Below, piece by piece: positions 4,136 to 58,018 of a stretch of 64,000 nt of DNA. The position numbers and the translations under genes were made by a program. The notes beneath the pieces were generated by a model. That model was given only the letters and a program-made list of their open reading frames with translations. It was not told the DNA's origin and made no database searches. Positions within the stretch are counted from its first letter, which is position 1. Each line of letters begins with the position of its first letter. Source of the stretch: an uncultured bacterium (lineage in GTDB: Bacteria; Krumholzibacteriota; Krumholzibacteriia; Krumholzibacteriales; Krumholzibacteriaceae); contig CAWFAD010000012.1 in the NCBI GenBank assembly GCA_963813815.1, forward strand, positions 58,142 to 122,141, read 5' to 3'.

Positions 4136-4558
4136 TCACCGTCCGATGCGCGCGATCGCTTCGATCTCCACGAGCGCGCCGAGCGGGAGCCGTCCCACCT
4201 GGTACGTGGCCCGCGCCGGAGGAGCCTCGCCGAAGAAGGTCGCATAGACCTCGTTCAGAACTGCGAAATCGTCCATCGACTGGAGCAGCACCGTCGTCTT
4301 CACGACCGCGGCCATCGTCGTCCCGGCGGCCTCGCAGATCGCGGCGACATTTTTGAGCGCCCGCCGCGCCTCGGCCTCGATCCCTCCGTCGACGAGCTTC
4401 TTCGTCTCCGGATCGATCCCGAGCTGCCCCGATACGAAGAGAAATTCCCCCGCGAGGATGCCCTGACTGTACGGTCCGATGGCGGCGGGGGCCGCCTTCG
4501 TGCGGATCACCTGTTTCACCGTGCCTCCTCCGAGAACGGTCGTCGCACCGAAGATCAC
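4136..4558 (-). CDS. ridA: RidA/YjgF family reactive enamine-imine deaminase
   Basis: The C-terminal 127 aa of the long ORF (VKQVIRTKAAPAAIGPYSQGI ... ARATYQVGRLPLGALVEIEAIA) is a typical RidA. The likely start is the GTG at 4558, overlapping the glmS stop as GTGA, or the GTG of VKQ near 4519. The 5' part of ORF 4136..6115 is an out-of-frame overlap with glmS and was rejected. Confidence 0.7.
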   Translation of the reverse strand: MIFGATTVLGGGTVKQVIRTKAAPAAIGPYSQGILAGEFLFVSGQLGIDPETKKLVDGGIEAEARRALKNVAAICEAAGTTMAAVVKTTVLLQSMDDFAVLNEVYATFFGEAPPARATYQVGRLPLGALVEIEAIARIGR

Positions 4559-6387: not shown

Positions 6388-6460
6388 CTCGACACCTCGA
6401 ATCGAATATCGCCGGCAAGGCCGGCGCCGACCTACCAACGCGATTGCCGCCCGCGCGGCG

Positions 6461-7801: not shown

Positions 7802-7935
7802 CGACACGCTCCGTCCCGCCACCGCGCCCGCGGCGCCGGGCGGTTTGCATTATACGACAGCCGCCGCCGAGCCGCATAAGAAAAATCCCGGCCGCCGGGC
7901 GGCCGGGACGATTCGCGGACCCTTCGCGGCGGAGC

Positions 7936-8481
7936 CTATTCCCGCACTTCGGCGTACGCGCGCATGAACGATTTGAGGTTTCGCGGCCCGACGCGCCCAA
8001 AACGCTTCGTGAGGGGTTCCTCGATCGATTCGGGCTTGATGACGCCCGTCATCTTGACCGCCGCGCCGAGCATCGTCGTGTTCGTAATGGGGCGCCCGAG
8101 CTCCTCGACCGCGATTTTCGTCGCGTCGACCGTTGCGACCCGGATATCGGCGTAGCCGAACTGTTTCTTGATCTCCTCGGGGCTCTTCGCCGTGTTGACG
8201 ACGAGAACGCCGCCGGATTTCAGGCCCTTTCGGGGATTCGCGATCCGGAGGAGGCTCTGGTCGAGCACGATGACGACGTCCGGTTCGTTCACGGCGAACC
8301 GGGTCCGGAGAGGCGCATCGTCGACGCGGGAGAACGCGACGACCGGCGCGCCGCGCCGCTCCGGCCCGAAGCTCGGAAAGCTCTGCGCGTATCTGCCCTC
8401 GTTGATGACGGCGACGGCGAGCAACTCGGCGCTCGTCACCGCTCCCTGTCCGCCGCGTCCGTGAAATCTGATCTCCAGCAT
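7936..8481 (-). CDS. porG: 2-oxoacid:ferredoxin oxidoreductase gamma subunit
   Basis: The 181 aa protein begins MLEIRFHGRGGQGAVTSAELLA, which includes the GRGGQG motif of OFOR gamma subunits. It is the last gene of the porDAB-nuoEF-fdx-porG string. Confidence 0.8.
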   Translation of the reverse strand: MLEIRFHGRGGQGAVTSAELLAVAVINEGRYAQSFPSFGPERRGAPVVAFSRVDDAPLRTRFAVNEPDVVIVLDQSLLRIANPRKGLKSGGVLVVNTAKSPEEIKKQFGYADIRVATVDATKIAVEELGRPITNTTMLGAAVKMTGVIKPESIEEPLTKRFGRVGPRNLKSFMRAYAEVRE

Positions 8482-8488
8482 GTTCGTC

Positions 8489-9214
8489 CTACTTTTTTGT
8501 CGAACGGCAATCGACGCACGTGTCGAAATGATCTTCCGGAAGGTTCGCGATCTTCCGGAAATACTCGAGCTGTTTCACCGGGGCGAAATGCTTTCCGCAG
8601 ACCTTGCATGCGGCCATCGGAAAATCCGTCTTCCAGATGCGCCGCACACCGTCGCGCTCCTCCATCGGAATGACGCCCACCGGACAGATATAGTGGCACG
8701 AGCCGCACGCGATGCAATCCTCCGGCGCCTCCTCGAACGGCGTCGCGACGGCGCGCGTGTCGCCGCGGCTCTTGAATCCGATCGCCGATACCCCCACGAC
8801 CTCCCGGCAGACGCGAACGCACTGGCCGCAGAGGATGCACCCCTTGAAGTCGACCGGGAACATGCTCTTCTCGATCCCGAGGCTCGAGGCGAGCTCGCGG
8901 AGGCGCGGATGCGTCGAGTTCCGCGAGAGGAGCAGGTGCAGAACGAGCCGCCGCACGTTCAGAACGCGCTCGGTCGAGGTATTCACCTCGAGCCCCTCGG
9001 CCACCTCGTGGATGCACGAAACGACGAGGCGCTGGCGCTTCTTGTGCGTAACCTCGACCATGCAGAGCCGGCAGGCGCCGTACGGATGGAGCTCCTCGTT
9101 GCTGCAGAGGTTGGGGATGTCGATGTTGGCGTCGCGCGCGGCGTCGAGAATCGTCGTCCCCGCCGCGGCCGTCACCCGCCGTCCGTCGATCGTCAGTGTC
9201 ACCTTGTCCGCCAT
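8489..9214 (-). CDS. [2Fe-2S] plus 2x[4Fe-4S] ferredoxin-like protein, like the N-terminus of NuoG or HydA without a catalytic domain
   Basis: Reading from the internal Met MADKVTLTIDGRRVTAAAGTTILDAARDANIDIPNLC ... CRLCMVEV gives a 2Fe-2S ferredoxin fold. Two CxxCxxCxxxCP motifs follow, giving 241 aa. The upstream extension of the ORF was rejected because it overlaps nuoF in another frame. Confidence 0.75.
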   Translation of the reverse strand: MADKVTLTIDGRRVTAAAGTTILDAARDANIDIPNLCSNEELHPYGACRLCMVEVTHKKRQRLVVSCIHEVAEGLEVNTSTERVLNVRRLVLHLLLSRNSTHPRLRELASSLGIEKSMFPVDFKGCILCGQCVRVCREVVGVSAIGFKSRGDTRAVATPFEEAPEDCIACGSCHYICPVGVIPMEERDGVRRIWKTDFPMAACKVCGKHFAPVKQLEYFRKIANLPEDHFDTCVDCRSTKK

Positions 9215-9258
9215 GTCGGTTCCTTTGCCGGGGGCGGCGCGTCCCCGCGCCGCCATCG

Positions 9259-11109
9259 CTACGAAATGAGTATCGCGTCGAACTTGCAGGCCTCGAAACA
9301 GGCCCCGCACTTGATACACGTTTTCTGATCGATCGTATGAGCCTTTTTCTTCTCCCCCGTTGCCGCCTTCGTCGGGCATACTCGCGCGCACGCCGTGCAT
9401 CCGGTGCAGGCGTCCGCCGCGACCGTGAAGGCGATGAGCTCCTTGCAGACGCCGGCCGGGCACTTCCGGTCGCGGATATGCGCGAGGTACTCGTCCTTGA
9501 AATGCTTGATGGTGCTCAGCACGGGGAACGGCGCCGTGCCCCCGAGGGCGCAGAGCGAGCCGTCGATGACCCCCTTGCCGATCCATTCGAGCAGATCGAT
9601 ATCGCTCTCCACTCCCTTGCCCGCGCAGATCCGGTCGAGAATGGCGCGCATCTGGTAGACGCCCTCGCGGCACGGCGTGCACTTGCCGCAAGACTCCTGC
9701 TCGAGAAACTTGAGGAAATACCTGGCGACGTCCACCATGCAGGTGCGATCGTCCATGACGATCATGCCGCCCGAGCCCATCATCGAGCCCACCTTCGAGA
9801 GCTCGTCGAAATCGACCGGCATGTCGAGATGCTGCTCGGGGATGCAGCCGCCCGAGGGACCGCCCGTTTGTATCGCCTTGAACTTCCGGCCCTTCGGGAT
9901 GCCGCCGCCGATGCCGAACACGATCTCGCGGAGGGTGATTCCCATGGGGACCTCAACGAGACCGGTGTTGTTGATCTTGCCGACGAGCGAGAAGATCTTC
10001 GTTCCCGTGCTCCCCGCGGTGCCGATCGAGGCGTACCAGTCGGCGCCCTTGCTGATGATCGGCGGCACGTTCGCCCACGTTTCGACGTTGTTGAGGCAGG
10101 TCGGTTTGTCGTAGAGGCCCCGGTCGGTGGCGTGCACGTACTTCTGACGCGGCTCGCCGGCCCGCCCTTCGATCGAGGCGAAGAGCGCGGAGGATTCGCC
10201 GCAGACGAAGGCGCCGCCGCCGCGGTTGATCTTGATATCGAAGCTGAAATCCGTTCCGAGGATCCTTTCGCCGAGCAGCCCGTACGCGCGGGCGTTCTCG
10301 ATCGCAGAGGTGATGTTCGTCACGGCGAGCGGATACTCGTTGCGCACGTAGATGTACCCGTTGCTCGAGCCGATCGCGAAGGCGCCGATGATCATCCCCT
10401 CGAGCACGCTGTGCGGATTGCCCTCGAGGAGGCTTCGATCCATGTAGGCGCCCGGATCCCCCTCGTCGGCGTTGCAGATGACGTACTTCGGCTCGCCCTC
10501 CGCCTTGGCGGTCGATTCCCATTTCCAGCCCGTCATGAAGCCGCCGCCGCCCCGTCCGCGAAGCTTCGCCCTCGTCACCTCGTTGATGATGTCCCCGGGC
10601 TTCATCGCGAGCGCCTTGGCGAGCGCCGCGTAGCCTCCGATGGCGACGTAGTCGTCGATGCTCCGCGGATCGATCTGCCCGTTCATGCCGAAGATAAGCC
10701 GCATCTGCTTCCGGTAGAAGGGAACGTCGTGCTCGTGGAGGATTTTCTCCTTCGTCACCGGATCGCGGTACACGAGGCGGTCGATGATTTCGTCCTTGAG
10801 CACCGATTTCTCGATGATCTCGCCCGCGTCCTCGGTTTTCACGTGCTGGTAGAATATCTTCTTCGGCTGGATCACGACAAGCGGTCCGCGCTCGCAGAAT
10901 CCGTGACAGCCGCTCGTGCGAATCTCGACCTTGTTTCCGAGCCCGCGCTTCTCGATCTCCGCGCGGAAGTTGTCGATGAGCTTCTGCGTACCGTACGCGA
11001 GGCATCCCGTGCCGGCGCATATCACGATGGTCGGCTTTCTCGGGTCGCGCGCGGACGCGAGCTTCTGCTGGAGCGTCGCGAGCTCTTTCGCCGATTTAAG
11101 CTTCTTCAT
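9259..11109 (-). CDS. nuoF: NADH-binding flavoprotein of the NuoF/HydB/HndC type (FMN, NAD(H), [4Fe-4S]) with an N-terminal thioredoxin-like [2Fe-2S] domain and a C-terminal 2x[4Fe-4S] domain
   Basis: The 616 aa protein has a GRGGGGF glycine-rich loop, the ESCGKCTPCREG 4Fe-4S motif, and C-terminal CTGCTAC ... CIKCGAC ferredoxin motifs. Confidence 0.85.
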   Translation of the reverse strand: MKKLKSAKELATLQQKLASARDPRKPTIVICAGTGCLAYGTQKLIDNFRAEIEKRGLGNKVEIRTSGCHGFCERGPLVVIQPKKIFYQHVKTEDAGEIIEKSVLKDEIIDRLVYRDPVTKEKILHEHDVPFYRKQMRLIFGMNGQIDPRSIDDYVAIGGYAALAKALAMKPGDIINEVTRAKLRGRGGGGFMTGWKWESTAKAEGEPKYVICNADEGDPGAYMDRSLLEGNPHSVLEGMIIGAFAIGSSNGYIYVRNEYPLAVTNITSAIENARAYGLLGERILGTDFSFDIKINRGGGAFVCGESSALFASIEGRAGEPRQKYVHATDRGLYDKPTCLNNVETWANVPPIISKGADWYASIGTAGSTGTKIFSLVGKINNTGLVEVPMGITLREIVFGIGGGIPKGRKFKAIQTGGPSGGCIPEQHLDMPVDFDELSKVGSMMGSGGMIVMDDRTCMVDVARYFLKFLEQESCGKCTPCREGVYQMRAILDRICAGKGVESDIDLLEWIGKGVIDGSLCALGGTAPFPVLSTIKHFKDEYLAHIRDRKCPAGVCKELIAFTVAADACTGCTACARVCPTKAATGEKKKAHTIDQKTCIKCGACFEACKFDAILIS

Positions 11110-11605
11110 CGGTTTCTACCTTTTTCCCGAGGGCGGCGAGCACCTTGTTCGTCTTGGCGATCGTGATTTGGCCGTGATACTCGTCGTTCACGACGAGTAT
11201 GGGGCCGAGCGCACAGGCGCCGAGGCAGTTCACCGTCTCAAAGCTGAACTCTCGATCGCTCGTCGTTTCGCCCGAAGCGATGCCGAGCGTGCGTGCGATG
11301 TGGTCAGCGATCTGCGGGGCCCCGCGAACGTGGCACGCCGTTCCGAGACAGAGGCTCAGGCGGTAGCGGCCTTTCGGCGCGAGACTGAACGCGCGGTAGA
11401 AGGTCGCGAGGTGGTACACGAGACTCCGCGTCACGCCGAGACTCTCGACGAGAGCGTCGAGCGCCTCTCTCGGGAGGTAATTGAACTCCCGCTGGATATC
11501 CTGCATGATGGGGATCACGAAGCTCTTGTCGCGCCCGTACCGCGCGACGATCTCGTCGACCTTCGCTCCCACGGCATCGTTTCGTTTCGATCGGCTCGCT
11601 TCCAT
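11096..11605 (-). CDS. nuoE: NuoE/HydC-type [2Fe-2S] thioredoxin-like ferredoxin subunit
   Basis: The 169 aa protein has the CLGTACH ... CLGACALGP cysteine pattern of 24 kDa NuoE-like subunits. It overlaps the nuoF start by 14 nt. Confidence 0.85.
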   Translation of the reverse strand: MEASRSKRNDAVGAKVDEIVARYGRDKSFVIPIMQDIQREFNYLPREALDALVESLGVTRSLVYHLATFYRAFSLAPKGRYRLSLCLGTACHVRGAPQIADHIARTLGIASGETTSDREFSFETVNCLGACALGPILVVNDEYHGQITIAKTNKVLAALGKKVETDEEA

Positions 11606-11654
11606 GGCTCGCTCTTTCCTGAGGTCGTCCTCTCTGCATCGACTCCCGCGCGCG

Positions 11655-12578
11655 CTAGAGCTCGGCTCTCGCGCGGAGCTTCTCCCATTCCCCCGTGACG
11701 CGACTCTGTATCTTCTCGATGAGCTCGGGCGTCAGATGGCGGAACCGCCCCTGAGGCTTGAGGTAGTCCGCGACCGGCCGCAGCGCGGGAACGTCGACCG
11801 TGATTCGGTACCGCCCCTTCTCGACTTCGTAGAGCGGGAACACACCCGTCTCGACGGCCAGCCGCCCGATCCAGATCGCCTTTTCGCTCGGAAGCCCCCA
11901 TCCCGTCGGACACACGGAGAGTATATGAATGTAGGCGGGGCCGCCGGCCTTCGCCGCCTTCTCGACCTTCTTCATGAGATCGAAGGGGTAGCTCGAGCAC
12001 GCCGTCGCGACGTAGGGGATGCCGTGCGCGGCCGCGATCTCCGGCATGTTCTTCTTCCACGTGACCTGCCCGGCCTTTATCTTGCCCGCCGGCGAGGTGG
12101 TCGTCGAGGCGCCGAACGGCGTTCCCGAGGATCGCTGCACGCCGGTGTTCATGTAGGCCTCGTTGTCGTAGCAGACATAGATGAAGCGATGCCCTCGCTC
12201 GAATGCGCCCGAAAGCGCCTGCAACCCGATGTCGCTCGTTGCGCCGTCGCCGCCCATGCCGAGGAAGATCGTCCCCTTCTCGGGGATCGCGCCCTTGCGC
12301 ACGAGCGCGCGGTAGGCGCCCTCGGCCCCCGTCGCGACCGCCGCGGCGTTTTCGAACGCGACGTGAATCCAGGGCACTCGCCAGTTGGTGAAGGGGAACG
12401 GCGAGGAGATGATCTCCATGCACCCCGTGGCCGAAGCGACGACGACGTTCTGCCCGAGCGCCTTTGCGACGAGCCGGACGGCGAGCGCTTCCGCGCACCC
12501 CTGACAGGCGCGATGTCCCGGGGCGAAGTACTCGCGCTTCGTGACGAGCCTCGAGGCGTATACGTTGAGCGATTCCAT
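11655..12578 (-). CDS. porB: Pyruvate/2-oxoacid:ferredoxin oxidoreductase beta subunit (TPP-binding)
   Basis: The 307 aa protein has the CQGCAE cysteine motif and the TPP-binding GDG ... NE region. Confidence 0.85.
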
Positions 12579-13762
12579 TACTCTCTCACCCCGTAGAAGA
12601 TATAATCTTCCTGCCGGATCGGCGCGCCGGAAGCGACGAGCTCCTCCGTTTTCGCGTACATCTTGATGAAGTCTTCCGGCGTAACGTCGCGGCCGGCGAA
12701 TCCCGCGAGGAAATTGGTGATCGCCGGCTTCTGCTTCTGCTCATAGAGCGCCGCGCGGATCTCGCTCGCCACCGGCCCGCCGGGACCGCCGTACGATATC
12801 GCCCGGTCGATAACGATGAGCTTTTTCACGCCCTTCACCGCGTCGCGGAGCTCGTCGAACGGAAACGGGCGCCAGAGGCGAAGCCGTATCTGCCCGACCG
12901 GCTTTCCCTGCTCGCGAAGGCGGTCGACCGCGATCGACGCGGTCTCCCCGAAGCTTCCCATCGTGACGATCGCCGTCTCGGCTCCGTCCATCTTGTAGGT
13001 TTCAACCGACTTGTACGCGCGACCGGTGATCTTCGCGATCTCGTCCCACGCCTTCATGATGACCGGCCTCGCGGCGAGGAGCGCCGCGTCCTGCGCCTTT
13101 TTCGTTTCGGCAAAAATGTTCGGAATGCCGAAGGCGCCCAGCGTGACGGGAGCGTCGGGAGTGAGCACGTTGACCGGTTTGAAGGGAGGAAGGTAACGCG
13201 CGGCCTGCTCCTTGTCCCAGTACTCGATGGCCTCGATGACGTGCGTCACGATGAACCCGTCGATGTTGATCATGACCGGTATCGAGACCGCCGGATCTTC
13301 GGCGACGCGAAAGGCGTAGAGCACGTGGTCGAAGAGCTCCTGCCCGTTGTCGGCGAACACCTGTATCCAGCCGCAGTCGCGCACCGACATCACGTCGGTG
13401 TGATCGTTCCAGATGCTCAGGGGTCCCGAAAGCGAGCGGTTCGCGAGGATCATCACGATCGGGAGCCGCAGGCTCGCCGCGATGAACACGATCTCGTTCA
13501 TGAGGGCGAGCCCCTGCGCGCTCGTGCAGGTGAAGGTGCGCGCCCCCATCGCGGAGGAGCCGCAGCACACGCTCATCGCCGAATGTTCCGATTCGACCGG
13601 TATGAACTCGGCGTCGAGCTCTCCCTCGGCGACGAGCTCGGCGAGGTGCTCGACGATGTGCGTCTGCGGGGTGATCGGATACGCCGCGACGACGTCGACG
13701 TTCGCCAGGGCGACCGCCTCCGCCGCGGCGATCGAGTTTTCGATTCCGACGCGTTTCGGCAT
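12578..13762 (-). CDS. porA: Pyruvate/2-oxoacid:ferredoxin oxidoreductase alpha subunit
   Basis: The 394 aa protein begins [34 protein letters not shown] and has the typical POR alpha domains I and III. Confidence 0.85.
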
Positions 13763-14068
13763 TTATTCCTCCGCCTCCTCCGCCATCGAGATGCAGCCCG
13801 TGATGCATTCCTGCGCGCAGATGCCGCAACCCTTGCAGTAGTAGAGGTCGGCCTCGAAGTAGCCTTCCTCATTCTTGCGGACCGCCGCGTCGGGACAGAA
13901 GAGGTAACAGACGCCGCACTTGACGCAGCGGGAATGATCCCACAGGGGCCGGATGGAGCGCCAGTCGCCGGTCCTATACTGCGCGGCGTTGCCGGCGTCG
14001 GAGACCGCGCAGCCGATCTCGATGTCTTTCCACCCGAGTTCTTCTTCCGATTTGACCGGCTTTTTCAT
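13763..14068 (-). CDS. porD: Pyruvate/2-oxoacid:ferredoxin oxidoreductase delta subunit (2x[4Fe-4S] ferredoxin)
   Basis: The 101 aa protein has two CxxCxxCxxxCP motifs (CVKCGVCYLFCP and CKGCGICAQEC). It is first in the cluster. Confidence 0.8.
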   Translation of the reverse strand: MKKPVKSEEELGWKDIEIGCAVSDAGNAAQYRTGDWRSIRPLWDHSRCVKCGVCYLFCPDAAVRKNEEGYFEADLYYCKGCGICAQECITGCISMAEEAEE

Positions 14069-14215
14069 GTCACTCCCCCGCGCTTCAGGGACGAAAAGCC
14101 CTCCCGACCCGATTCCCCGCCGTGAACGAAAAAAATTAGGCGAAATATACTCTCTTCGCCGCGCACCTTCAAGCGGAAACGGCGGGGGCCGCGCCCCCGC
14201 CGTCCGCCTGCGAGC

Positions 14216-16174: not shown

Positions 16175-16439
16175 CTGCTACCTCCTGTAGGGTTTCCGTT
16201 CGCTCGCAGGATTATCGTTTCAGTCGGATACATGGTCGCGCAAAACGCGGCACTAAACGCTTGAATTTATTGAGATACTCCGCAAATGTCAAGACAAAAT
16301 CGGTTTGGCGAATGGGGGTTCCGCAAACCTCTGGAAACGAATCCCCAGCCGGTATATACTCTCACACTGCGGCGTTCGAGCGGCCCGTACCGGGCATGCA
16401 ACGCCCTCCGCGAAACGGGACGCCGCGCCGCGAACGACC

Positions 16440-35193: not shown

Positions 35194-35260
35194 CGATCTA
35201 CCTCCCGGGGTCAATCCCGACTTCGGAACGCTCGCCGCTCCATATCCGATTCGAACGCTA

Positions 35261-35809
35261 TTATTTCTCGAGGAGCTCCGCCGCGGCCTTCAGCCCCTCG
35301 TCGAACGCCTTCATGTTGAGCTCTTCGGTCCCTTTCGGCACGCGGGCGAGAATGGCCTTGCGGACCGATTCCTCGGACGCGGCCTGCGAGATTTTCGTGA
35401 GAATCCCGAGGGCAACGATGTTCGTCACGACCGCCTTGCCGACCTTCTTCAGCGCGATCTCGGTGATCGGCGCCTCGTAGAGCCGGTAGTCTCCCTTCGG
35501 CAGCTCCTTGACGAGCCCCGAATCGACGATGAGAACGCCGCCGGCCTTGAGGTCCCCGCTGTACTTCGTGCACGAGACCTGCGTGAGCGCGAGCAGCAGA
35601 TCGAGGTTCAGCACCTTCGGATAATCGATGTCGCCGTCGCTCGTGACGACCTCGGCCTTGCTCGCCCCGCCGCGCGCCTCGGGGCCGTAGCTCTGCGTCT
35701 GCACGGCGTTGCGCCCGTCGTATATCACGACCGCCTCCGCCAGGATCTTGCCCGCGAGGATGAGCCCCTGCCCGCCGGAGCCGCTCAGCCTCATTTCATA
35801 TCTGTCCAT
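35261..35809 (-). CDS. 2-oxoacid:ferredoxin oxidoreductase gamma subunit (cluster 2)
   Basis: The 182 aa protein begins MDRYEMRLSGSGGQGLILAGKILAEA. It is last in the korD-korA-korB-korG string on the minus strand. Confidence 0.8.
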   Translation of the reverse strand: MDRYEMRLSGSGGQGLILAGKILAEAVVIYDGRNAVQTQSYGPEARGGASKAEVVTSDGDIDYPKVLNLDLLLALTQVSCTKYSGDLKAGGVLIVDSGLVKELPKGDYRLYEAPITEIALKKVGKAVVTNIVALGILTKISQAASEESVRKAILARVPKGTEELNMKAFDEGLKAAAELLEK

Positions 35810-35827
35810 GCGAAGCTCCTGTTTCCG

Positions 35828-36652
35828 TCAGTCCTTCGATTTCTCGGTTTTCAGCCTTTGGATGAGCTTGTCGTACTCGGCGCAGAACTCCGGTTTCTCG
35901 ACGTCCCACAGGACTCCGGACGCGATCTTGCCCACGCGCTCGTCCTCGGCCATCTTGTCGAGCTTGTCCTTCGTAACGACGTTGTCCTTGAGCCAGTTCA
36001 TGAGATCGACGGGGTTGGCGAGCTTGTTCCGCCGCCCGTACGCCGTCGGACACGGCGAGAGGATCTCGACCACGGAGAATCCCTTCTTCGAGAGCGCCGC
36101 CGTGATGAGCTTGTCGAGCTGCTGGACGTGGTACACGTCGCCGAGCGCCACGAACGAGGCCCCCGCCGCCTGCGCGAGCCCCGCGATGTTGAACGACGGC
36201 TCGAGGTTCCCGAACGGCGCCGTCGAAGCGTTCTTGCCGCGCGGGGTCGTCGGGGACACCTGCCCTCCCGTCATCCCGTAGATGAAGTTGTTGTAGAGGA
36301 GCACCGTGAGATCGATGTTGCGTCTCGCCGCATGGATGTAATGGTTCCCGCCGATGGCGGTCGCGTCCCCGTCCCCCGTCACGACGATCACGTGGAGCTT
36401 CGGGCTGGCGAGCTTTACCCCCGTGGCGAAGGCGATCGCGCGCCCGTGCGTCGTATGCAGCGTGTTGATATCGATGTATCCGGGAGTGCGGCTCGAGCAT
36501 CCGATCCCCGACACCATCGCGGTCTCGTCCTTCGGGATCCCGAGCTTCTTGAGGGAGCGGATGAGCGACTTGAGGACGATCCCGTCCCCGCACCCCGAGC
36601 ACCAGATATGAGGCAGGTTCCGCTCGCGCACGTATTCGAGGTAGTTGAACAT
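35828..36652 (-). CDS. 2-oxoacid:ferredoxin oxidoreductase beta subunit (cluster 2)
   Basis: From the internal Met MFNYLEYVRERNLPHIWCSGCGDGIV ... GDGDATAIGGNH ... MTGGQVSPTTP, a TPP-binding beta subunit of 274 aa. Confidence 0.85.
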   Translation of the reverse strand: MFNYLEYVRERNLPHIWCSGCGDGIVLKSLIRSLKKLGIPKDETAMVSGIGCSSRTPGYIDINTLHTTHGRAIAFATGVKLASPKLHVIVVTGDGDATAIGGNHYIHAARRNIDLTVLLYNNFIYGMTGGQVSPTTPRGKNASTAPFGNLEPSFNIAGLAQAAGASFVALGDVYHVQQLDKLITAALSKKGFSVVEILSPCPTAYGRRNKLANPVDLMNWLKDNVVTKDKLDKMAEDERVGKIASGVLWDVEKPEFCAEYDKLIQRLKTEKSKD

Positions 36653-36654
36653 CG

Positions 36655-37921
36655 TCAGAACGCCTCCTTGACGGCGTCGACGATCTGTTTCGGGGTGATC
36701 GGGTCTCCATCGACGCGGTTCACCCGCCTGATTTCGGCGCGGCATTTCGCCGCGAGCTCGACCTCGCGCGCCATCTGCCCGAGGTTCATTTCGGCGCAGA
36801 TGAACGCCTTGACCTTCCCCGCGATATCGAGTATCTCCTCCGCCGGGAACGGCCAGATCGTCGTCGGCTCGAAGAGACCGACCTTGATTCCCGCCTCGCG
36901 GCACTCCTTGACGGCACGCTTCGCGGACCGGGCGACCCCGCCGTACGCGAAGACGCAGATCTTCGCGTCATCGAGCTCGAACGTCTTCCAGCGCATGATC
37001 TTCGCGCGGTGCCGCTCGATCTTGTCGGTGAGGTGCAGGATGTTCGCCTCGATCTTCTTCGCGTCGTTCGTCGGGAAGCCCGTTTCGTCATGGCAGAGAC
37101 CGGTCACGTTGTACCGGTATCCCGTGCCGAAATTCGCGAGAACCGGGATGCCGTCCTCGTTCTTCGCGTACGGGAGATACTTGCCGGGGAGGAACGGACG
37201 GCTGCTTGCGATTGACGATCCGGACGCTCGAGTGGTCAGGGAGGTACATCCGCTCCGTCATGTGGCCGACGATCTCGTCGAAGAGCAGTATGACGGGGGT
37301 CATGTACGTCTCGGCGAGGTTGAACGCCTCGATCGTCTGCTCGAACATCTCTTGCGCCGAGGATGCGGTGAGGGCGATGACGCCGTGGTCCCCGTGGCTT
37401 CCCCACCGGGCCTGCTGCATGTCCATCTGGGCGGGAAGGGTCGGCGTGCCGGTGTCGGGCCGCCCCGCTGCACGTCGACGACGACGCACGGCACCTCCGC
37501 CATGACCGGCGTGCCCGAGATTCTCCTGCTTGAGGCTGAAGCCGGGACCCGAGGTCGCCGTGAGCGCCTTGGCCCCGGTGAGCGAGGCTCCGATGACGGC
37601 GCCCATCGCCGCGATCTCGTCCTCCATCTGGATGAATTTCCCCCCGACCCGCGGAAGCTTCCTCACGAGGTACTCCGCGATCTCGGAGCTCGGGGTGATC
37701 GGATACCCGGCGAAGAAGCGGCAGCCGGCCCAGATCGCCCCTTCGGCGCAGGCGTCGTTCCCCTGCATCATGACCACCGTGCCGGTCGGACTCTTTGACA
37801 ACGCCGTCGTCTCCTTTTTCGGGTCGCCCCGCCGCGGGGACGCCCCCATACCCGTCTCGACTCCCCGGGGACGGCGAGGGGCAAAAAAATAAGGACCCCC
37901 TCGCGGAGAGTCCTCATTCAA
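36655..37921 (-). pseudogene. 2-oxoacid:ferredoxin oxidoreductase alpha subunit (cluster 2), interrupted by three frameshifts
   Basis: The N-terminal piece MMQGNDACAEGAIWAGCRFFAGYPITPSSEI is in ORF 37088..37921. The middle piece MAEVPCVVVDVQRGGP is in ORF 37300..37503. The C-terminal piece TGLCHDETGFPTNDAKK ... DAVKEAF is in ORF 36655..37107. Together they reconstruct a full alpha subunit. This is either real decay or sequencing errors. Confidence 0.65.
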
Positions 37922-38132
37922 CCGTTATAGCGAAATCAGGACACCTGAGCTCGCACAGGTTGCACTTGATGCAGTCATCGGGTCGTGCAACCTTGACCTT
38001 GCCGCCCTCCATCTCGAGGACGGCCTTGGGGCAAAAGGCCACGCAGATCTCGCACCCCTTGCACCACTTCAGGTTGACCTTTATTATCGCTTTCTTTTTT
38101 TCTGCAGCCTGGCTCTCGGCCACCCCGACCAC
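37914..38132 (-). CDS. 2-oxoacid:ferredoxin oxidoreductase delta subunit (2x[4Fe-4S] ferredoxin, cluster 2)
   Basis: The 72 aa protein, with a GTG start, has CKGCEICVAFCP and CIKCNLCELRCP motifs. Confidence 0.75.
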   Translation of the reverse strand: MVGVAESQAAEKKKAIIKVNLKWCKGCEICVAFCPKAVLEMEGGKVKVARPDDCIKCNLCELRCPDFAITVE

Positions 38133-38341
38133 TTCCGATCAGGTTCTATGCAAGCGCTTGAAAAGCGATTTATCCCGTGAAAGGTACGGTCTGAAATTGG
38201 AACGAATATATACCACCCCTCGTTTCAATGGCAAGCCTTTTTGGGCCTATAGCAGACTTTTTTCAGGATACTGGAAGGGATTCGGGCGTCTTTTTCGGCC
38301 ATTTCCTTGACGTAAGAGGCGTTCTTTCATATTATTCACGC

Positions 38342-38560
38342 ATGCATTCGATCAAGTTGCGCACGGAATGGTGCAAGGCGTGCAAGATCTGCATCCAGAT
38401 CTGCCCGCGCCAGGTCTACGTACAGGGGAAGGACCTCAACGCAAAAGGATACAAGGTCACGAAGGTCGAGAAGCTCGAGGAGTGCACGGGATGCAAGCTC
38501 TGCGAGCTCATGTGCCCCGATCTCGTGATCACCGTCGAAGATGCCGAAAAAAACGGATAA
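38342..38560 (+). CDS. 2-oxoacid:ferredoxin oxidoreductase delta subunit (cluster 3)
   Basis: From the internal Met MHSIKLRTEWCKACKICIQICP ... CTGCKLCELMCP, 72 aa. It is divergent from cluster 2 across a roughly 210 bp shared intergenic region. Confidence 0.75.
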   Translation: MHSIKLRTEWCKACKICIQICPRQVYVQGKDLNAKGYKVTKVEKLEECTGCKLCELMCPDLVITVEDAEKNG

Positions 38561-39674
38561 GGCGCTCATGGCGCCCAAGAAATACTTCATGCAGGGAAAC
38601 CTCGCCTGCGCCGAGGGAGCGCTCGCGGCTGGGTGCCGATTCTACGCGGGATACCCCATCACTCCCTCTTCCGAGATCATGGAGCACCTCGCGCGGCGGA
38701 TGACCGAGGTCGGGGGAACGTTCGCGCAGATGGAGGACGAGATCGCCTCGATTTGCGCCGTCATCGGCTCCTCGTGGGGGGGCGTGAAATCGATGACCGC
38801 CACCTCGGGCCCCGGCCTTTCCCTCATGATCGAGGGGCTCGGGTACGCCTTCATGACGGAGACGCCATGCGTCATCATCAACGTGCAGCGGCAGGGCCCC
38901 GCCACGGGGAAGGCGACGAGGCCCGGCCAGGGAGACATCATGCAGGCGCGCTGGGGAGCTCACGGCGACCATCGCGTCATCGCCCTTTCTCCGTGGTCGT
39001 GCCAGGAGATGTACGATCTCACGATCGAGTCCTTCAATCTCTCCGAGCGCTACCGGGTCCCGGTCATACTCCTCGCCGACGAGATCGTCGGACACATCAA
39101 GGAGAGCTTCACCGTCCGCCCCGAGGTCGAGACGTTCGATCGCAACCGCGAGGGGGGCAAGGCGCCGTTCGGAGCCGAGCTCGTCCCCCCGATGCCGGCG
39201 TTCGGCGACGGACAGGCGCTCCTCGTGACCGGCTCGACGCATAACGATTGGGGAGTCCGCAAGGTGTCCGATCCCGACGTGCAGGAGAAACTCACGAAGC
39301 GCATCTGCGACAAGATAGACCTCAACCGGCACGAGATCGTGAAGGTCGACCGGCATTTCACCGAGGATTGCGACACGCTGCTCATCGCCTTCGGCATCAC
39401 GGCGCGCAGCGCCTACTACGCGGCGCGCGCGCTCCGGAGCGAGGGGCGCCGGGTCGGCCTGCTGCGCCCGATCAGCATCTGGCCGCTCCCCGAGGACGAG
39501 ATCAGGGCCGCCGCCGAAACGGCCTCCCGGGTGATCGTCTGCGAGATGAACCAGGGACAGCTCGTTCACGAGGTCGAACGGCTCCTCTGCGGAAAGGAGA
39601 TCGCGGGGCTTTTCAAGAGCCGCGGCGAACCGATCTACCCTCAGGAGATCATCGCAAAGGTGGTGGCGCAGTGA
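38541..39674 (+). CDS. 2-oxoacid:ferredoxin oxidoreductase alpha subunit (cluster 3, intact)
   Basis: The 377 aa protein reads MPKKTDKALMAPKKYFMQGNLACAEGALAAGCRFYAGYPITPSSEI ... INVQRQGPATG. Its stop overlaps the beta start. Confidence 0.85.
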   Translation: MPKKTDKALMAPKKYFMQGNLACAEGALAAGCRFYAGYPITPSSEIMEHLARRMTEVGGTFAQMEDEIASICAVIGSSWGGVKSMTATSGPGLSLMIEGLGYAFMTETPCVIINVQRQGPATGKATRPGQGDIMQARWGAHGDHRVIALSPWSCQEMYDLTIESFNLSERYRVPVILLADEIVGHIKESFTVRPEVETFDRNREGGKAPFGAELVPPMPAFGDGQALLVTGSTHNDWGVRKVSDPDVQEKLTKRICDKIDLNRHEIVKVDRHFTEDCDTLLIAFGITARSAYYAARALRSEGRRVGLLRPISIWPLPEDEIRAAAETASRVIVCEMNQGQLVHEVERLLCGKEIAGLFKSRGEPIYPQEIIAKVVAQ

Positions 39675-40429
39675 GCTCGCATCTCTACCGGTATCTGCGC
39701 GAAGAGGTCTTTCCGACGCCGTTCTGCCCCGGGTGCGGGCACGGCATTCTGCTCGGCGCCGTGACGCGCGCCATCGACGAGCTCGGGCTCGACATGAAGA
39801 GAATAGTGTTCGTCTCGGGCATCGGGTGCGCGGCATGGATCCCCTCTCCCCATTTCAAGGCGGACACGCTCCACACCCTCCACGGACGGGCGGTCGCCTT
39901 CGCGAACGGGCTCAAGCGCTCCCGCCCCGATCTCAAGGTCATCGTGATCTCCGGCGACGGGGATCTCGCCGCGATCGGCGGAAATCATCTGATTCACGCG
40001 GCGCGCCGGAACGTTCCGCTCACCGTCATCTGCGCCAACAACAGCATCTACGGAATGACCGGCGGGCAGCAGTCTCCGACCACGCCGTACGGCGCCTTCA
40101 GCGAGACGACCCCCAAGGGAAATCCCGAGAAACCGTTCGATCTGTGCCGTCTCATGAAGGCCTGCGATGCGCCGTTCGTGGCCCGTCAGACGGTGTATCA
40201 CGTACGGCCGCTCATCAAGATCATCAAGAAGGCGCTCACGACGGAGGGATTCGCGTTCGTCGACGTCGTGTCCCCGTGCCCGACGCAGTTCGGGCGCAAG
40301 AACAAGCTCGCGGGCGGCTACGAGATGCTCATGGATCTCAAGGAGCGCGCGATTCAATACGAGAAGGCGAAGGCGCTTCCCAAAGAGGAGCTTCAACAGA
40401 GGATCGTAACCGGTGAATTCAACGATTGA
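39671..40429 (+). CDS. 2-oxoacid:ferredoxin oxidoreductase beta subunit (cluster 3)
   Basis: From a GTG start, the 252 aa protein reads SSHLYRYLREEVFPTPFCPGCGHGIL ... GDGDLAAIGGNH ... MTGGQQSPTTP. Confidence 0.85.
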   Translation: MSSHLYRYLREEVFPTPFCPGCGHGILLGAVTRAIDELGLDMKRIVFVSGIGCAAWIPSPHFKADTLHTLHGRAVAFANGLKRSRPDLKVIVISGDGDLAAIGGNHLIHAARRNVPLTVICANNSIYGMTGGQQSPTTPYGAFSETTPKGNPEKPFDLCRLMKACDAPFVARQTVYHVRPLIKIIKKALTTEGFAFVDVVSPCPTQFGRKNKLAGGYEMLMDLKERAIQYEKAKALPKEELQQRIVTGEFND

Positions 40430-40970
40430 AATCAAGCTGACCGGCAAGGGCGGCCAGGGAGTCGTCTCCGCCGGCGAGATTCTCGCGTACGCGGCCGTTC
40501 TCGACGGCAAGGAAGCGAGCGCGGTGGCGGCCTACGGCTCCGAGGCCCGCGGCGGCGCCGTGAGCTCGGACGTCGTCATCGGCGATACCGAGGTCCCCGC
40601 CCCCTTCGTCATCAAACCGACGTACGTGCTGGCGATGTCGAAGGAAGGATACGCCGCGGCAGCCAAAATCCTCGCCGCCGATACGAAGGTCATCTACGAC
40701 GCGACGACCATCAAGGACGCCCCGCGCGACGCGAACCACTTCCCCGTTCCCGCCGCCGAAATCGCCGCGAAGGTCGGCAACCCCGTCACGATCAACATGG
40801 TGCTCCTCGGCGCCTTCGCGGCGATCACCGCCGTGGTGAAGCGCGAAAGCATCGAAACGGTCGTGAAGGAGAAAATGAAGCCCGAAGCGGCCGCGCTCAA
40901 CGTCAAGGCGCTCGCGGAGGGGTATGAAACGGGAAAGGGGCTTCTCGAGAAGCCCCCCGCCTCGAATTGA
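40413..40970 (+). CDS. 2-oxoacid:ferredoxin oxidoreductase gamma subunit (cluster 3)
   Basis: From a GTG start, the 185 aa protein reads NSTIEIKLTGKGGQGVVSAGEILAYAAV. It overlaps the beta gene end. Confidence 0.8.
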   Translation: MNSTIEIKLTGKGGQGVVSAGEILAYAAVLDGKEASAVAAYGSEARGGAVSSDVVIGDTEVPAPFVIKPTYVLAMSKEGYAAAAKILAADTKVIYDATTIKDAPRDANHFPVPAAEIAAKVGNPVTINMVLLGAFAAITAVVKRESIETVVKEKMKPEAAALNVKALAEGYETGKGLLEKPPASN

Positions 40971-48800: not shown

Positions 48801-49955
48801 CTATTTCGCGAGCCTCGCCGCGGCGAGGGTCAGGAGATCCTTCACGTCGACGGGCGCCTTGCGCCACGACGTGCCGCCGAGCACTTCGGCGTAGAGGAGC
48901 GTGCATTTCGGACAGGCGGTGACGAGCGTGCCGGCGCCGGCGCGGTGCGCCTCGACGAGGCGCTCGTCGACGGCCGTCCTCGTGTGCGGCCCGTGATCGA
49001 CGAGCGATCCGGCCCCGCAGCACGGGGCCTTCGCGCCCCGCCGCTCGAGCTCGACGAGCCCCGCCGAAGAAAGGGAGCTCAGCAGCTTTCTCGGAGCGTC
49101 CTCGACCCCGAGGGATCGGCACAGATAGCAGGGATCGTGAAACGCGAATTTCTCCTCGCCGGCGCGAAAGACGAGCCCGCCGAGACGCTCGGCGATGTAC
49201 TCGGTGACGTGCCGGATCTCGATCGGCGCTCCGCCGAGCTCTCCGGCGTAATTGAATTTCAGCGTGAAGGCGCATTCGGGACACACGGTGAGAACGGTCT
49301 TCGCCTTCGCCTTCTTCAGCAGGGCCGCGTTGTGGCGCGCGAGAGCGGCGAACGCCTCGCGATCGCCCGTGTCGTACAGATCCCTGCCGCAGCAGCGCTC
49401 GTCCTCGAGAATCGCCGGGGCGACGCCGAGGCCGTTGAGGAGTCTCACCGCGGCCCTCGCCATGCCGCCGAAGGCTCCCGGCTCGACACCAATGCCGAGG
49501 GAATCGAAGAGCGCGAGGCATCCGGCGAACAGCACGACGGCGCTCTCCGGATCGAGCTCGAGCGACTTGTCGACCCACGAGTGGCGGGCCTTCGCCGCTC
49601 CCTGCCGGACCCCGGTCTCGAGCCTTTTCTGATACTGGCGGACGAGGCCACCGTGAATCGGCCGGCAATCGGATCTGCCGACGCGGAGCTCCCGGACGAA
49701 ATCGGCGAATTCGACCTTGAAGGGACACGCCTCGGTGCACGCCCGGCACGTGACGCACGTCCAAATCAGCCGGTGCTCGCGAGCGGCCGCCTCCCCGCCC
49801 CGGAGAAAGAGTTGAGCGAGATCGCGGGGATGGTGCTTGCCGTAGTGCCGGTAAACGGGACAGACCTCTGCGCACTCGTTCGCGCAGCGCGTGCAATCCT
49901 CGATGCGGAAGCTTTCCTTGATTTCCTGTTCGTTCATTTCGATTTCCATGCCCAC
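48801..49955 (-). CDS. HdrD/GlcF/GlpC-like iron-sulfur protein (2x[4Fe-4S] ferredoxin domain plus two CCG cysteine-rich domains)
   Basis: The 384 aa protein has CTRCANECAEVCP and CVTCRACTEACP motifs followed by CCG-type motifs (CCGRD, CPECAF, PCYLC, CCGAG, CPKC). Confidence 0.8.
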   Translation of the reverse strand: MGMEIEMNEQEIKESFRIEDCTRCANECAEVCPVYRHYGKHHPRDLAQLFLRGGEAAAREHRLIWTCVTCRACTEACPFKVEFADFVRELRVGRSDCRPIHGGLVRQYQKRLETGVRQGAAKARHSWVDKSLELDPESAVVLFAGCLALFDSLGIGVEPGAFGGMARAAVRLLNGLGVAPAILEDERCCGRDLYDTGDREAFAALARHNAALLKKAKAKTVLTVCPECAFTLKFNYAGELGGAPIEIRHVTEYIAERLGGLVFRAGEEKFAFHDPCYLCRSLGVEDAPRKLLSSLSSAGLVELERRGAKAPCCGAGSLVDHGPHTRTAVDERLVEAHRAGAGTLVTACPKCTLLYAEVLGGTSWRKAPVDVKDLLTLAAARLAK

Positions 49956-52195: not shown

Positions 52196-53017
52196 GCCGT
52201 GCGCGCCCCCTTCTTCCGCCCTCCGCGCCCCGTAGTCCGGCCCGCGGGCTTTCCCGCCGCCGGCTTGCGCGGCGATCGCCCGCCCCGCCGCGCGAGGGCG
52301 ACCGCCACGAGGGGATGCGTCCCCGCCTCGCCGCGCTGCTTCTGGTCGATCTCGCAGCGCGCGCATTCGTAGTTCAGCGAGCAGACCGCGTCCGGCAAAA
52401 AGCCCATGAGGGTATAGCGGCAGAGGTGCTCCCCCCCCCTGCTTGCGGAGCTCGAGGACGCGCGTGTATTCCATCTGAACGGCCCCCGTGGGGCATACGA
52501 AGGTGCACGCCCCGCAGGCGATGCACTTCGAATGATCGATGCCGTAGGGGGAGTCGACTTTCCTGTCGATCCCCCGTTCGGCGAAGCCTATCGCGTTCGC
52601 CCCGACGATCTCGGCGCACGTGCGGACGCACAGCCCGCAGAGGATGCAGTTGTCGTCGAGGGGGACAAAACGCGATTTGACGACGCCGTATCGCGCGGCG
52701 AGCTTCTTCACGTACGGAGCGTTCGGCGAGCGCGCGAGCAGCAGCTCGAGCAGAAACTTTCTCAGAGCGCGTATCCTCTCCGTCTCCGAACGCACCTCGA
52801 GCCCGTCGGCGACCGGATAGAGGCACGAGGTCACGATCCGCCAGCGTTTCTTGCCCCTCTCTCTGACCTCCACGACGCAGAGCCGGCAGGCTCCATAGGG
52901 TTCGAGAGCGTCGTGAGCGCAGACGGCGGGAATGTCGACGCCCGCGGCGCGCGCCGCGTCGAGCACGCTCTCCCCTTCCCGCGCCGGCCTCGCCCTGCCG
53001 TTCAGGATAAACCTCAT
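52192..53017 (-). pseudogene. [2Fe-2S] plus 2x[4Fe-4S] ferredoxin-like protein (paralogue of 8489..9214), frameshifted in a G9 homopolymer
   Basis: From the internal Met MRFILNGRARPAREGESVLDAARAAGVDIPAVCAHDALEPYGACRLCVVEV ... CILCGLCVRTC ... CIACGACTFVCP. The frame then moves, at a run of nine G around 52430, into ORF 52192..52407 (MGFLPDAVCSLNYECARCEID ... basic tail). Its stop overlaps the ATG of the next gene as ATGA. Confidence 0.6.
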
Positions 53018-53553
53018 GTATAGCTCTCCAGCGCCTTGTCGACCGTGAGGTGGTCGAGCTTGCCGTGTATGTTTCCGTCGATCGTCATGACCGGAGCCTG
53101 ACCGCAGCATCCGAGACACCGGACCGTCTCGAACGAAAAACGTCCGTCGGCGGTCGTCCCGCCCTCCGCGATTCCGAGCGTCCGCTCGATCGCATCCTTT
53201 ACCCGCTCCCCGCCCCGCACGTGGCAGGCCGTCCCCATGCAGAGGCATACCTCGTGGCGGCCGCGGGGCTCGAGCCGGAAGGCCTTGTAGAAGGTCGCGA
53301 TCGCGTAGAGGCGCGTCATCGGCACGTCGAGCTCCCGCGCGATGTACCGCAGATCCGCCTCGCCGAGGTAGCGGCGCTTCTCCTGAAGATCCTGGAGAAT
53401 GGCGATGATCTGGACGCTCGCGCGTCCGTGCCGCTCGAGGACCTCCTCGATGGCCGATGCCTCTGGCGCCGCCGGAGACGGCACGGCCGTCGAGGGGCCG
53501 CGCCGCGCGGCGAGCGCGCGTTCGATGGCTCGTATGCTCTCGCTTCCGCTCAT
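53014..53553 (-). CDS. NuoE/HydC-type [2Fe-2S] subunit (second copy)
   Basis: From the internal Met MSGSESIRAIERALAAR ... CLCMGTACHVRG ... CLGCCGQAP, 179 aa. The upstream extension of ORF 53014..53802 was rejected. Confidence 0.8.
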   Translation of the reverse strand: MSGSESIRAIERALAARRGPSTAVPSPAAPEASAIEEVLERHGRASVQIIAILQDLQEKRRYLGEADLRYIARELDVPMTRLYAIATFYKAFRLEPRGRHEVCLCMGTACHVRGGERVKDAIERTLGIAEGGTTADGRFSFETVRCLGCCGQAPVMTIDGNIHGKLDHLTVDKALESYT

Positions 53554-53600
53554 GGCTTGTGTCCCGGGCGGCCCCGGAGGGGGGCCTCCTTCGCGCGGCG

Positions 53601-57940: not shown

Positions 57941-58018
<78 letters not shown>

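Follow-up and report, generated by a model that had tools for sequence, protein, structure and literature searches.

The window analysed here comprises 64,000 nucleotides of contig CAWFAD010000012.1 (assembly GCA_963813815.1), which stems from an uncultured bacterium of the family Krumholzibacteriaceae, phylum Krumholzibacteriota. Its minus strand carries seven genes (14068..7936) in the order porD-porA-porB-bfuC-bfuB-bfuA-porG. Four of them encode the delta, alpha, beta and gamma subunits of a predicted pyruvate:ferredoxin oxidoreductase (POR), and the remaining three, located between the genes for the beta and the gamma subunit, encode a predicted flavoprotein module of the Bfu family. An initial annotation, made from the nucleotide sequence, had described this arrangement as a POR operon with embedded nuoE, nuoF and ferredoxin genes. 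The gene order and coordinates that it gave proved exact, and the identity of each gene was confirmed by open reading frame (ORF) coordinates together with Pfam and NCBIfam models (Table 1).

The seven genes are tightly packed. The genes porD and porA abut, porA and porB overlap by 1 nt, and bfuC and bfuB overlap by 14 nt. Gaps of 49, 44 and 7 nt separate porB from bfuC, bfuB from bfuA and bfuA from porG, respectively, such that all gaps and overlaps within the operon amount to 49 nt or less. A promoter-like site is present only before porD, where it overlaps a weak hairpin and T-run at 14160..14139, and the ATG of porD at 14068 is preceded by the ribosome-binding site GGGGGAG. The only strong terminator is located behind porG. 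The initial annotation had named an internal promoter or terminator as evidence for transcription of nuoE, nuoF and the ferredoxin gene apart from the por genes. Consensus and terminator scans detected neither at the porB/bfuC or bfuB/bfuA gaps. Terminator-like signals within the operon are limited to weak 5-6-bp stems inside coding sequence, and the total of ten such signals is not far above the expectation from shuffled sequence (6.1 ± 2.2). An Rfam scan did not reveal any regulatory RNA near the operon.

All subunits of a four-subunit POR, i.e., alpha, beta, gamma and delta, are encoded, along with the binding motif for thiamine pyrophosphate (TPP) and three sets of [4Fe-4S] ligands, all of which are conserved. 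PorD contains two such sets (Cys 48, 51, 54 and 58 as well as Cys 78, 81, 84 and 88), which are invariant in 46 homologues, while PorB provides the third (C25, C28, C53 and C223) in addition to the TPP-binding motif GDG...N. Among solved structures, PorA comes closest to the alpha subunit of a four-subunit pyruvate:ferredoxin oxidoreductase (9bt4_B, 309.6 bits), and oxalate oxidoreductase ranks next. Among the NCBIfam models, those for POR are the first match for all four subunits. PorB alone passes the equivalog cutoff. PorA (468 versus 550), PorD (102 versus 120) and PorG (217 versus 225) reach the subfamily level only, and models for VOR, oxalate and phenylglyoxylate enzymes also score significantly. 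Pyruvate is most likely the substrate of the predicted POR part. The significant scores of the other models would also accommodate an enzyme for another 2-oxoacid ("XOR-Bfu"), for example 2-oxoisovalerate in a VOR-type reaction, oxalate or an aryl-glyoxylate. We regard this as quite improbable, given the top rank of the POR models, the PorB equivalog match and the relationship of PorA to the four-subunit enzyme. Moreover, two KOR/OOR-type 2-oxoacid oxidoreductases are encoded separately in the window.

The three embedded genes encode proteins equipped with an extensive set of predicted iron-sulfur clusters. In BfuC, the ligands for the [2Fe-2S] cluster C1 (C86, C91, C127 and C131) show no variation across 59 sequences, and the best matches in the Protein Data Bank (PDB) are HydC, NiFe-HydC and WorC of bifurcating enzymes, with WorC ranking among the top three. 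BfuB contains the FMN/NADH domain (Complex1_51K, 143.8 bits; NADH_4Fe-4S, 107 bits), which bears the N3-type [4Fe-4S] cluster B1 with the invariant ligands C474, C477, C480 and C520. On its N-terminal side, a thioredoxin-like domain (2Fe-2S_thioredx, residues 24-101) provides C31, C36, C68 and C72 for the [2Fe-2S] cluster B5, and a C-terminal Fer4 dicluster domain (residues 565-613) contains the ligands for the two [4Fe-4S] clusters B3 and B4 (C568-578 and C598-608). The Bfu family is defined by five BfuB clusters and one BfuC cluster, and the ligands of the B2 site, i.e., C438, C476, H525, C531 and C536 in HydB from A. mobile, have been singled out (Schut et al. 2022, PMC9304861). An ungapped HMMER alignment places C457, C495, H544, C550 and C555 of the window protein at exactly these positions. 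For 55 full-length BfuB homologues taken from related loci, 44 of them linked to POR genes, the residue corresponding to H544 is invariant. In all 44 POR-linked sequences, the 12 cysteine ligands of B3, B4 and B5 are invariant, and so are the other BfuB ligands with the exception of position 495, which is occupied by Thr (32 sequences), Cys (9) or Ser (3). The window protein has Cys at this position (about 9625-9627), as does the NiFe enzyme from A. mobile. Variation between Cys and Thr at this site has been described before, with Thr in place of C476 in many sequences, and Thr has been suggested to lower the potential of the cluster (Schut et al. 2022, PMC9304861). Por-Bfu lineages may therefore differ in the tuning of B2 via residue 495.

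The PDB entries that align with BfuB from end to end are bifurcating enzymes (WorB, three HydB proteins and NfnB; 647-789 bits). WorB is the best match (9MQX_B, 788.8 bits, residues 23-613). The other scores are 767 bits for HydB from T. kivui (8A6T_B), 755 bits for HydB from A. woodii (7Q4V_B), 750 bits for NiFe-HydB from A. mobile (7T2R_B), 670 bits for NfnB (9N5U_B) and 663 bits for HydB from T. maritima (7P5H_B). The non-bifurcating proteins FdsB and Nqo1/NuoF, on the other hand, align to residues ~127-549 only, with 400 bits or less. These observations bear on a fundamentally different function of the module. In principle, BfuA could relay electrons from PorD to the FMN in BfuB, which would hand them on to NAD+ with no requirement for ferredoxin, in the manner of NAD-dependent formate dehydrogenase or the Hox diaphorase. 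Such a non-bifurcating POR would make thermodynamic sense, as electron transfer from pyruvate (-500 mV) to NAD+ (-320 mV) is strongly exergonic and coupling is not needed; a literature search yielded no assay of any Por-Bfu. Nevertheless, we consider it unlikely. BfuB has all of the clusters B2-B5 as well as the conserved histidine, both of which non-bifurcating homologues lack (Schut et al. 2022, PMC9304861), and its closest solved relatives are all proven bifurcating enzymes, while FdsB and Nqo1 match its core only. Furthermore, Wor-Bfu, which is also fed by a low-potential donor, is reported by the authors to reduce neither acceptor alone (PMC9304861).

BfuA is shorter than the ORF listing implied. 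The 400-aa ORF given for the ferredoxin-like gene is an upstream over-extension, and the true product of 241 aa starts with the ATG at 9214, which is preceded by AAAGGA, and ends with the stop codon at 8489. All 16 cysteines of the protein are accounted for by one [2Fe-2S] site (C37, C48, C51 and C67), two CxxCxxCxxxC motifs for [4Fe-4S] clusters (C126-136 and C167-177) and a zinc-finger-like CxxC...CxxC motif (C203, C206, C233 and C236), five residues after which the protein ends. BfuA has neither a catalytic domain nor the His-ligated [4Fe-4S] cluster A3 or the A5 cluster, and its alignment with HydA is gapped at the segment bearing the extra, His-ligated cluster. The best PDB match is WorA (9MQX_A, E=6.7e-47, 163 bits, residues 1-218). 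WorA (9mqx_A) was also the top Foldseek match of a low-confidence BfuA model, which adds weakly to the sequence evidence. Judged by ligands and alignments, the trio is a complete bifurcating-type BfuC/BfuB/BfuA module. The initial annotation had equated it with the NuoE/NuoF/NuoG N-terminus trio of bifurcating [FeFe]-hydrogenases and NAD-dependent formate dehydrogenases; the bifurcating type is borne out by the ligands and by the alignments with WorB and HydB, whereas the third protein is WorA-like and not a plain NuoG N-terminus. An assignment to the N-module of complex I was also considered and rejected: NuoF (TIGR01959, 469.6 versus a cutoff of 558.65) and NuoE (NF005722, 127.9 versus 141) models stay below threshold, other nuo genes do not adjoin, and BfuB has additional N- and C-terminal cluster domains.

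Searching for homologues of BfuA yielded 4034 proteins at E<=1e-3, and the best 120 of these exhibit 66-91% identity and lengths of 234-255 aa. One genome per GTDB species was scanned with a BfuA alignment, 79 loci were kept and the seven window proteins were mapped by tblastn. Linkage of POR and Bfu genes was seen in about 51 species-level genomes, where they occur in four different orders. The window order, porD-A-B-bfuC-B-A-porG, for which conserved synteny had been called for in the initial annotation, was found in 13 loci, all of them from UBP1, Krumholzibacteriota or unclassified "bacterium" metagenome-assembled genomes (MAGs), with BfuA identities to the window of 73-91% (57% in L050). 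The order porG-D-A-B-bfuC-B-A is the most common one (33 loci) and is present in Thermodesulfobacteriota/Desulfobacterales, including ORM2a and Eth-SRB2, and in two Dehalococcoidia (L052 and L056). Four Firmicutes MAGs (L029, L031, L042 and L046) have the order porG-D-A-bfuC-B-A-porB, and a single Dehalococcoidia MAG (L067) has porG-bfuC-B-A-porD-A-B. The porG gene from the window shares 54-62% identity with the porG genes heading the porGDAB-bfuCBA clusters in other phyla. Against the gamma subunits from a second, unlinked POR cluster of the same locus, identity is only 26-44%, and against the two KOR-type gamma subunits encoded in the window it is 27-30%. This pattern indicates that the last porG is the same gene as the leading porG in a changed position. 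The proposal that a module was inserted before the gamma subunit gene thus gives way to another one: With porGDAB-bfuCBA as the commonest order, the arrangement in Krumholzibacteriota is better read as a 3'-terminal placement of porG.

Linkage of the same seven genes in about 51 genomes shows that their adjacency is not a matter of chance. The bfu genes split the por genes at three different points, and still all seven are kept together, which is difficult to account for if their products do not act as one unit. This permuted interleaving argues strongly for a single functional unit and is the strongest argument available. It has to be weighed against the possibility that a ferredoxin-dependent POR and a free BfuABC are two separate enzymes that are merely co-transcribed and exchange electrons via the soluble ferredoxin pool. 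Four-subunit PORs of many organisms function alone, the usual exit route via two clusters is intact in PorD, and an orphan BfuA in one of the loci (L014, see below) shows that the genes are separable. However, a free BfuABC whose BfuA has no catalytic domain would lack a third substrate and could catalyze only uncoupled exchange between NADH and ferredoxin. The three-way splitting of the por genes across phyla and the preserved linkage also speak for a joint function, and BfuA bears the C-terminal zinc-finger element that contacts the partner module in WorA. Taken together, we deem two independent enzymes improbable.

Another option is that the trio serves an unlinked hydrogenase, formate dehydrogenase or Nfn-like subunit and resides in the por operon for co-regulation only. 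Bfu modules are indeed known to pair with many different partners (Schut et al., PMC9304861), and an NfnA-like protein is encoded 40 kb away in the window. This NfnA-like gene, however, is accompanied by its own adjacent copies of BfuB (58% identity) and BfuC, and in the genomes surveyed the BfuA type in question is flanked by por genes and not by genes for other catalytic subunits. A hydrogenase or formate dehydrogenase partner had been raised in the initial annotation as a potential counter-argument; Pfam scans of 30 larger ORFs across the window found no catalytic subunit of either enzyme. An unlinked partner is therefore highly improbable.

Even in other phyla, the Por and Bfu proteins stay closely similar to those of the window, e.g., with 79-84% identity for PorB and 67-78% for BfuB, which may point to transfer of the module between phyla. 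Three loci contain more distant bfuB-bfuA pairs (40-45% BfuA identity) with other gene sets 5' of bfuB. Going by ORF size and N-terminal sequence, L064 and L071 have several consecutive genes for what appear to be small membrane proteins of Rnf/Nqr-like sizes, and L073 has genes for an HdrA-like flavoprotein of ~1000 aa and an MvhD-like protein. Within Krumholzibacteriota and UBP1, conservation extends beyond the operon, which is neighbored by acs, immediately upstream on the same strand, and by glmM. The block acs-porDAB-bfuCBA-porG-glmM-glmS (window 4555-16174) is retained in order and strand in L001, L005, L050 and L058, with 66-94% identity of the encoded proteins across the MAGs of these groups. 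In other phyla, acs, the gene for AMP-forming acetyl-CoA synthetase, is not linked to Por-Bfu.

The interpretation of the seven genes as encoding a Por-Bfu complex is not new. Schut et al. 2022 (Front Microbiol, PMC9304861) predicted Por-Bfu and assigned it to Type 2 of the Bfu enzymes, with Dehalococcoides mccartyi 195 as an example, for which co-expression of the genes lends support. A role either in pyruvate synthesis from NADH and reduced ferredoxin under energy limitation or in obligately coupled oxidation resembling that of Wor-Bfu was proposed (PMC9304861). The window system matches this prediction in its seven components, in a BfuA with just one [2Fe-2S] and two [4Fe-4S] clusters, and in the full set of BfuB and BfuC clusters. 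It differs in phylum, as the 12 sequences reported earlier are from Chloroflexi and "syntrophic Proteobacteria" (PMC9304861), in the terminal position of porG, which comes first in the two Dehalococcoidia-class loci L052 and L056, and in the residue at position 495, which is Cys here and of the Thr type in D. mccartyi (supplementary alignment of Schut et al.). By the published classification with its 1558-sequence reference set, the BfuB of a Por-Bfu would be related to the Wor/Bam/Mbh group (clade 45, or clades 35/44; PMC9304861). In a comparison by PDB scores, the window BfuB ranks WorB (788.8 bits) above T. kivui HydB (767 bits). Relative to the earlier prediction, the phylum and the terminal position of porG are new, and the analysis adds many more genomes, the four gene-order permutations and statistics on ligand conservation.

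Among characterized systems, WorABCSL from Acetomicrobium mobile (9MQX) comprises the closest solved relatives of both BfuB and BfuA and is likewise of Type 2, with a separate low-potential module feeding BfuA. It has been shown to reduce NAD+ and ferredoxin only together (as reported in PMC9304861). Its partner module, in contrast, is not a TPP enzyme but consists of the tungstopterin protein WorL and the polyferredoxin nanowire WorS. In addition, the zinc finger of WorA is followed by a C-terminal helix for oligomer contacts. The WorA homologue of Por-Bfu has been noted to retain the zinc finger without the terminal helix (PMC12318220), and the end of the window BfuA five residues after its last cysteine fits this description. 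The full-length BfuB/BfuC core and the B2 ligands are also shared with HydABC and NiFe-HydABCSL (8A6T, 7Q4V, 7P5H and 7T2R), but HydA contains an H-cluster domain and a His-ligated [4Fe-4S] cluster, both of which are absent from the window BfuA. Stand-alone PorABDG enzymes (9BT4; archaeal/Thermotoga type) consist of the same four subunits with TPP motif and three [4Fe-4S] ligand sets; their genes are contiguous and electrons are delivered to free ferredoxin, whereas here three bfu genes interrupt the por genes. A characterized NAD+-reducing 2-oxoacid oxidoreductase is PadEFGHI from Azoarcus/Aromatoleum, in which the NAD module is a single PadH-type subunit. It belongs to the same 2-oxoacid:acceptor oxidoreductase superfamily and is also linked to NAD+ by an extra subunit, but a subunit of this type is not encoded in the window operon. 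Pad models score significantly and below threshold (PadE 168 versus 300, PadF 74.9 versus 150, PadG 311.6 versus 700 and PadI 233.6 versus 700), and assignment as a Pad-type NADH-dependent phenylglyoxylate dehydrogenase was rejected.

We propose that the seven genes encode one soluble Por-Bfu complex, a Type 2 BfuABC member coupling pyruvate to both NAD+ and ferredoxin, and put the probability of this reading at roughly 0.6. The NAD(H)-linked 2-oxoacid oxidoreductase envisaged in the initial annotation thus finds support at the sequence level in the bifurcating-type ligands, the absence of a catalytic domain from BfuA, the interleaved gene orders and the lack of internal terminators or promoters. 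In such a complex, pyruvate would be decarboxylated with CoA by PorA and PorB with the aid of TPP, and electrons would leave singly from the [4Fe-4S] cluster of PorB to the two [4Fe-4S] clusters of PorD. We infer that the proteins are physically associated and that PorD passes these electrons not to free ferredoxin but into BfuA with its two [4Fe-4S] clusters and one [2Fe-2S] cluster, from where they would reach the BfuB/BfuC core via B1 and the FMN in BfuB. By analogy with WorABCSL and HydABC, electrons may then be split at FMN, B2 and C1, two going to NAD+ and two via B3 and B4 to ferredoxin, and each branch would run only if the other one does. The net reaction would be 2 pyruvate + 2 CoA + NAD+ + 2 Fd(ox) <-> 2 acetyl-CoA + 2 CO2 + NADH + H+ + 2 Fd(red), with Fd for ferredoxin. 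As to its direction, the potentials compiled by Schut et al. 2022 (Table 1 therein, PMC9304861) are -500 mV for pyruvate and, under physiological conditions, -280 mV for NAD and -500 mV for ferredoxin. From these we calculate about -42 kJ for the oxidation of two pyruvate, all of which stems from the NAD+ branch. Pyruvate synthesis would accordingly be uphill by ~21 kJ per pyruvate, such that the oxidative direction appears favored. Synthesis comes close to equilibrium only when the pyruvate couple is shifted by ~+100 mV, with pyruvate very scarce and CO2 and acetyl-CoA abundant.

Several points weigh against a coupled Por-Bfu complex. As pointed out by Schut et al. (PMC9304861), the low potential of pyruvate would allow uncoupled reduction of both NAD+ and ferredoxin, so that thermodynamics does not call for bifurcation. 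Our literature search found no purification, assay or other experimental characterization of any Por-Bfu. Apart from PMC9304861 and a single sentence in the paper on the Wor structure, it yielded nothing on Por-Bfu enzymology, on POR-Hym complexes in Dehalococcoides or on NuoEF beside por genes. The below-cutoff equivalog scores of PorA, PorD and PorG make pyruvate a probable but not a certain substrate. Only gene spacing and consensus scans speak for co-transcription of the seven genes. The AlphaFold model of BfuA, built from a 20-sequence input alignment, has a predicted local distance difference test (pLDDT) score of 66, with values <50 for the dicluster domain. Finally, in locus L014, an orphan BfuA homologue (8001-8714, 237 aa, 70% identity) resides on a 224-kb delta-proteobacterial contig with no por, bfuB or bfuC gene within 8 kb. 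The neighbors of this gene encode OmpA-family and GAF-domain proteins.

The acs gene upstream of the operon is compatible with a function in acetate assimilation, but could equally reflect inherited synteny. On this basis, one can conceive of Por-Bfu and acs as an acetate-assimilation unit in Krumholzibacteriota, in which an obligately coupled, confurcating pyruvate synthase would use NADH to replace half of the costly reduced ferredoxin. The four gene orders would then be the outcome of repeated horizontal transfer of the whole module between phyla. We offer this as a tentative scenario that we ourselves consider rather doubtful.

Turning to further features of the window, a second, separate Bfu-type cluster of four or five genes is present on the minus strand (46653-55472). 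Its NfnA/StnA-like protein combines a BfuA-like N-terminus with a GltD-like FAD/NADPH domain, extra 4Fe-4S clusters and a C-terminal MvhD/FlpD domain. The cluster appears to encode an Nfn-Bfu transhydrogenase extended by Hdr-like components, and we found no published description of MvhD/CCG additions to Nfn-Bfu. The two KOR/OOR-type four-subunit operons are divergent (35261-40970), each in the order delta-alpha-beta-gamma, and bring the number of 2-oxoacid:ferredoxin oxidoreductase systems in the window to three, including Por-Bfu. The alpha subunit gene of the minus-strand operon is apparently split (37921..37088 and 37091..36786), which may be due to a frameshift or an assembly error. Enzymes of pyruvate, acetyl-CoA and 2-oxoacid metabolism are unusually frequent in the window, comprising acs, Por-Bfu, the KOR operons, malic enzyme and a carboxylase-like protein. 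The presence of a selenocysteine tRNA indicates that the organism probably makes selenoproteins, and a protein with a Por_Secre_tail domain suggests a type IX secretion system in the lineage.

Table 1 Positions of the por and bfu genes, their flanking signals and further features of the 64-kb window.
Feature	Position	Strand	Assignment and remarks
Promoter-like site between acs and porD	14144..14172	-	TTGAAG-17-TATATT; consensus scan, 9/12 matches; consensus match only
porD, POR delta subunit, 101 aa	13763..14068	-	PorD/KorD; TIGR02179, 92.8 bits vs cutoff 60.05
porA, POR alpha subunit, 394 aa	12578..13762	-	POR_N + PFOR_II
porB, POR beta subunit, 307 aa	11655..12578	-	TPP_enzyme_C; NCBIfam PorB equivalog, 414 bits vs cutoff 405
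bfuC, NuoE/HydC-like, 169 aa	11096..11605	-	2Fe-2S_thioredx, 161.5 bits
bfuB, NuoF/HydB-like, 616 aa	9259..11109	-	Complex1_51K + NADH_4Fe-4S + C-terminal 4Fe-4S dicluster + N-terminal 2Fe-2S_thioredx
bfuA, WorA-like, short NuoG/HydA N-terminus, 241 aa	8489..9214	-	Fer2_4 + 4Fe-4S dicluster
porG, POR gamma subunit, 181 aa	7936..8481	-	POR family; TIGR02175, 221.7 bits vs 81.1; 3' end of operon
Intrinsic terminator 3' of porG	7885..7909	-	11-bp stem, 9 GC pairs, then TTTTTCTT
BfuB paralogue	55472..53601	-	58% identical to POR-linked BfuB, full length
BfuC paralogue	~53500..53014	-	44% identity
NfnA/StnA-like protein, ~1027 aa	53017..49934	-	Best PDB matches 9BOV_A, 8OH5_C, NfnA 9N5U_A
HdrD-like CCG protein	49955..48801	-	Fourth gene of second Bfu cluster
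Fer2_4 + Pyr_redox_2 + BFD protein, 715 aa	48800..46653	-	Fifth gene of second Bfu cluster
KOR/OOR operon 1	38132..35261	-	
KOR/OOR operon 2	38228..40970	+	
Malic enzyme; pyruvate carboxylase subunit B/oxaloacetate decarboxylase alpha-like protein	33685-35214; 55550-57529	-	Carboxylase-like protein: HMGL + PYC_OADA + biotinyl
Three tandem genes, 791, 834 and 967 aa	25398-33151	-	N-terminal Ser/Thr protein kinase domain, then TPR repeats
1110-aa protein	22022-25354	+	Ends in T9SS C-terminal sorting domain (Por_Secre_tail)
Large two-component-regulator beta-propeller protein	16305-18818	+	Reg_prop/Y_Y_Y
Selenocysteine tRNA	4001-4094	-	Rfam RF01852, 71.3 bits
Ordinary tRNAs	41010-41082; 57944-58016		

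In anaerobes, catabolism and CO2 fixation meet at pyruvate:ferredoxin oxidoreductase. Whether a Por-Bfu distributes the electrons of pyruvate to NAD+ and ferredoxin, or merges electrons to form pyruvate, is a question first raised by Schut et al. 2022, and the window adds a new phylum to it. Together with the related loci, i.e., about 51 genomes with four interleaved gene orders and conserved cofactor ligands, it makes the best genomic case to date for a single complex. If Por-Bfu indeed splits or merges electrons, the ATP and redox balances in metabolic models would change for Dehalococcoidia, many sulfate reducers, hydrocarbon degraders such as ORM2a and Eth-SRB2, and Krumholzibacteriota. 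It would then also stand beside Wor-Bfu as a second system for testing why bifurcating machinery is combined with a low-potential donor.

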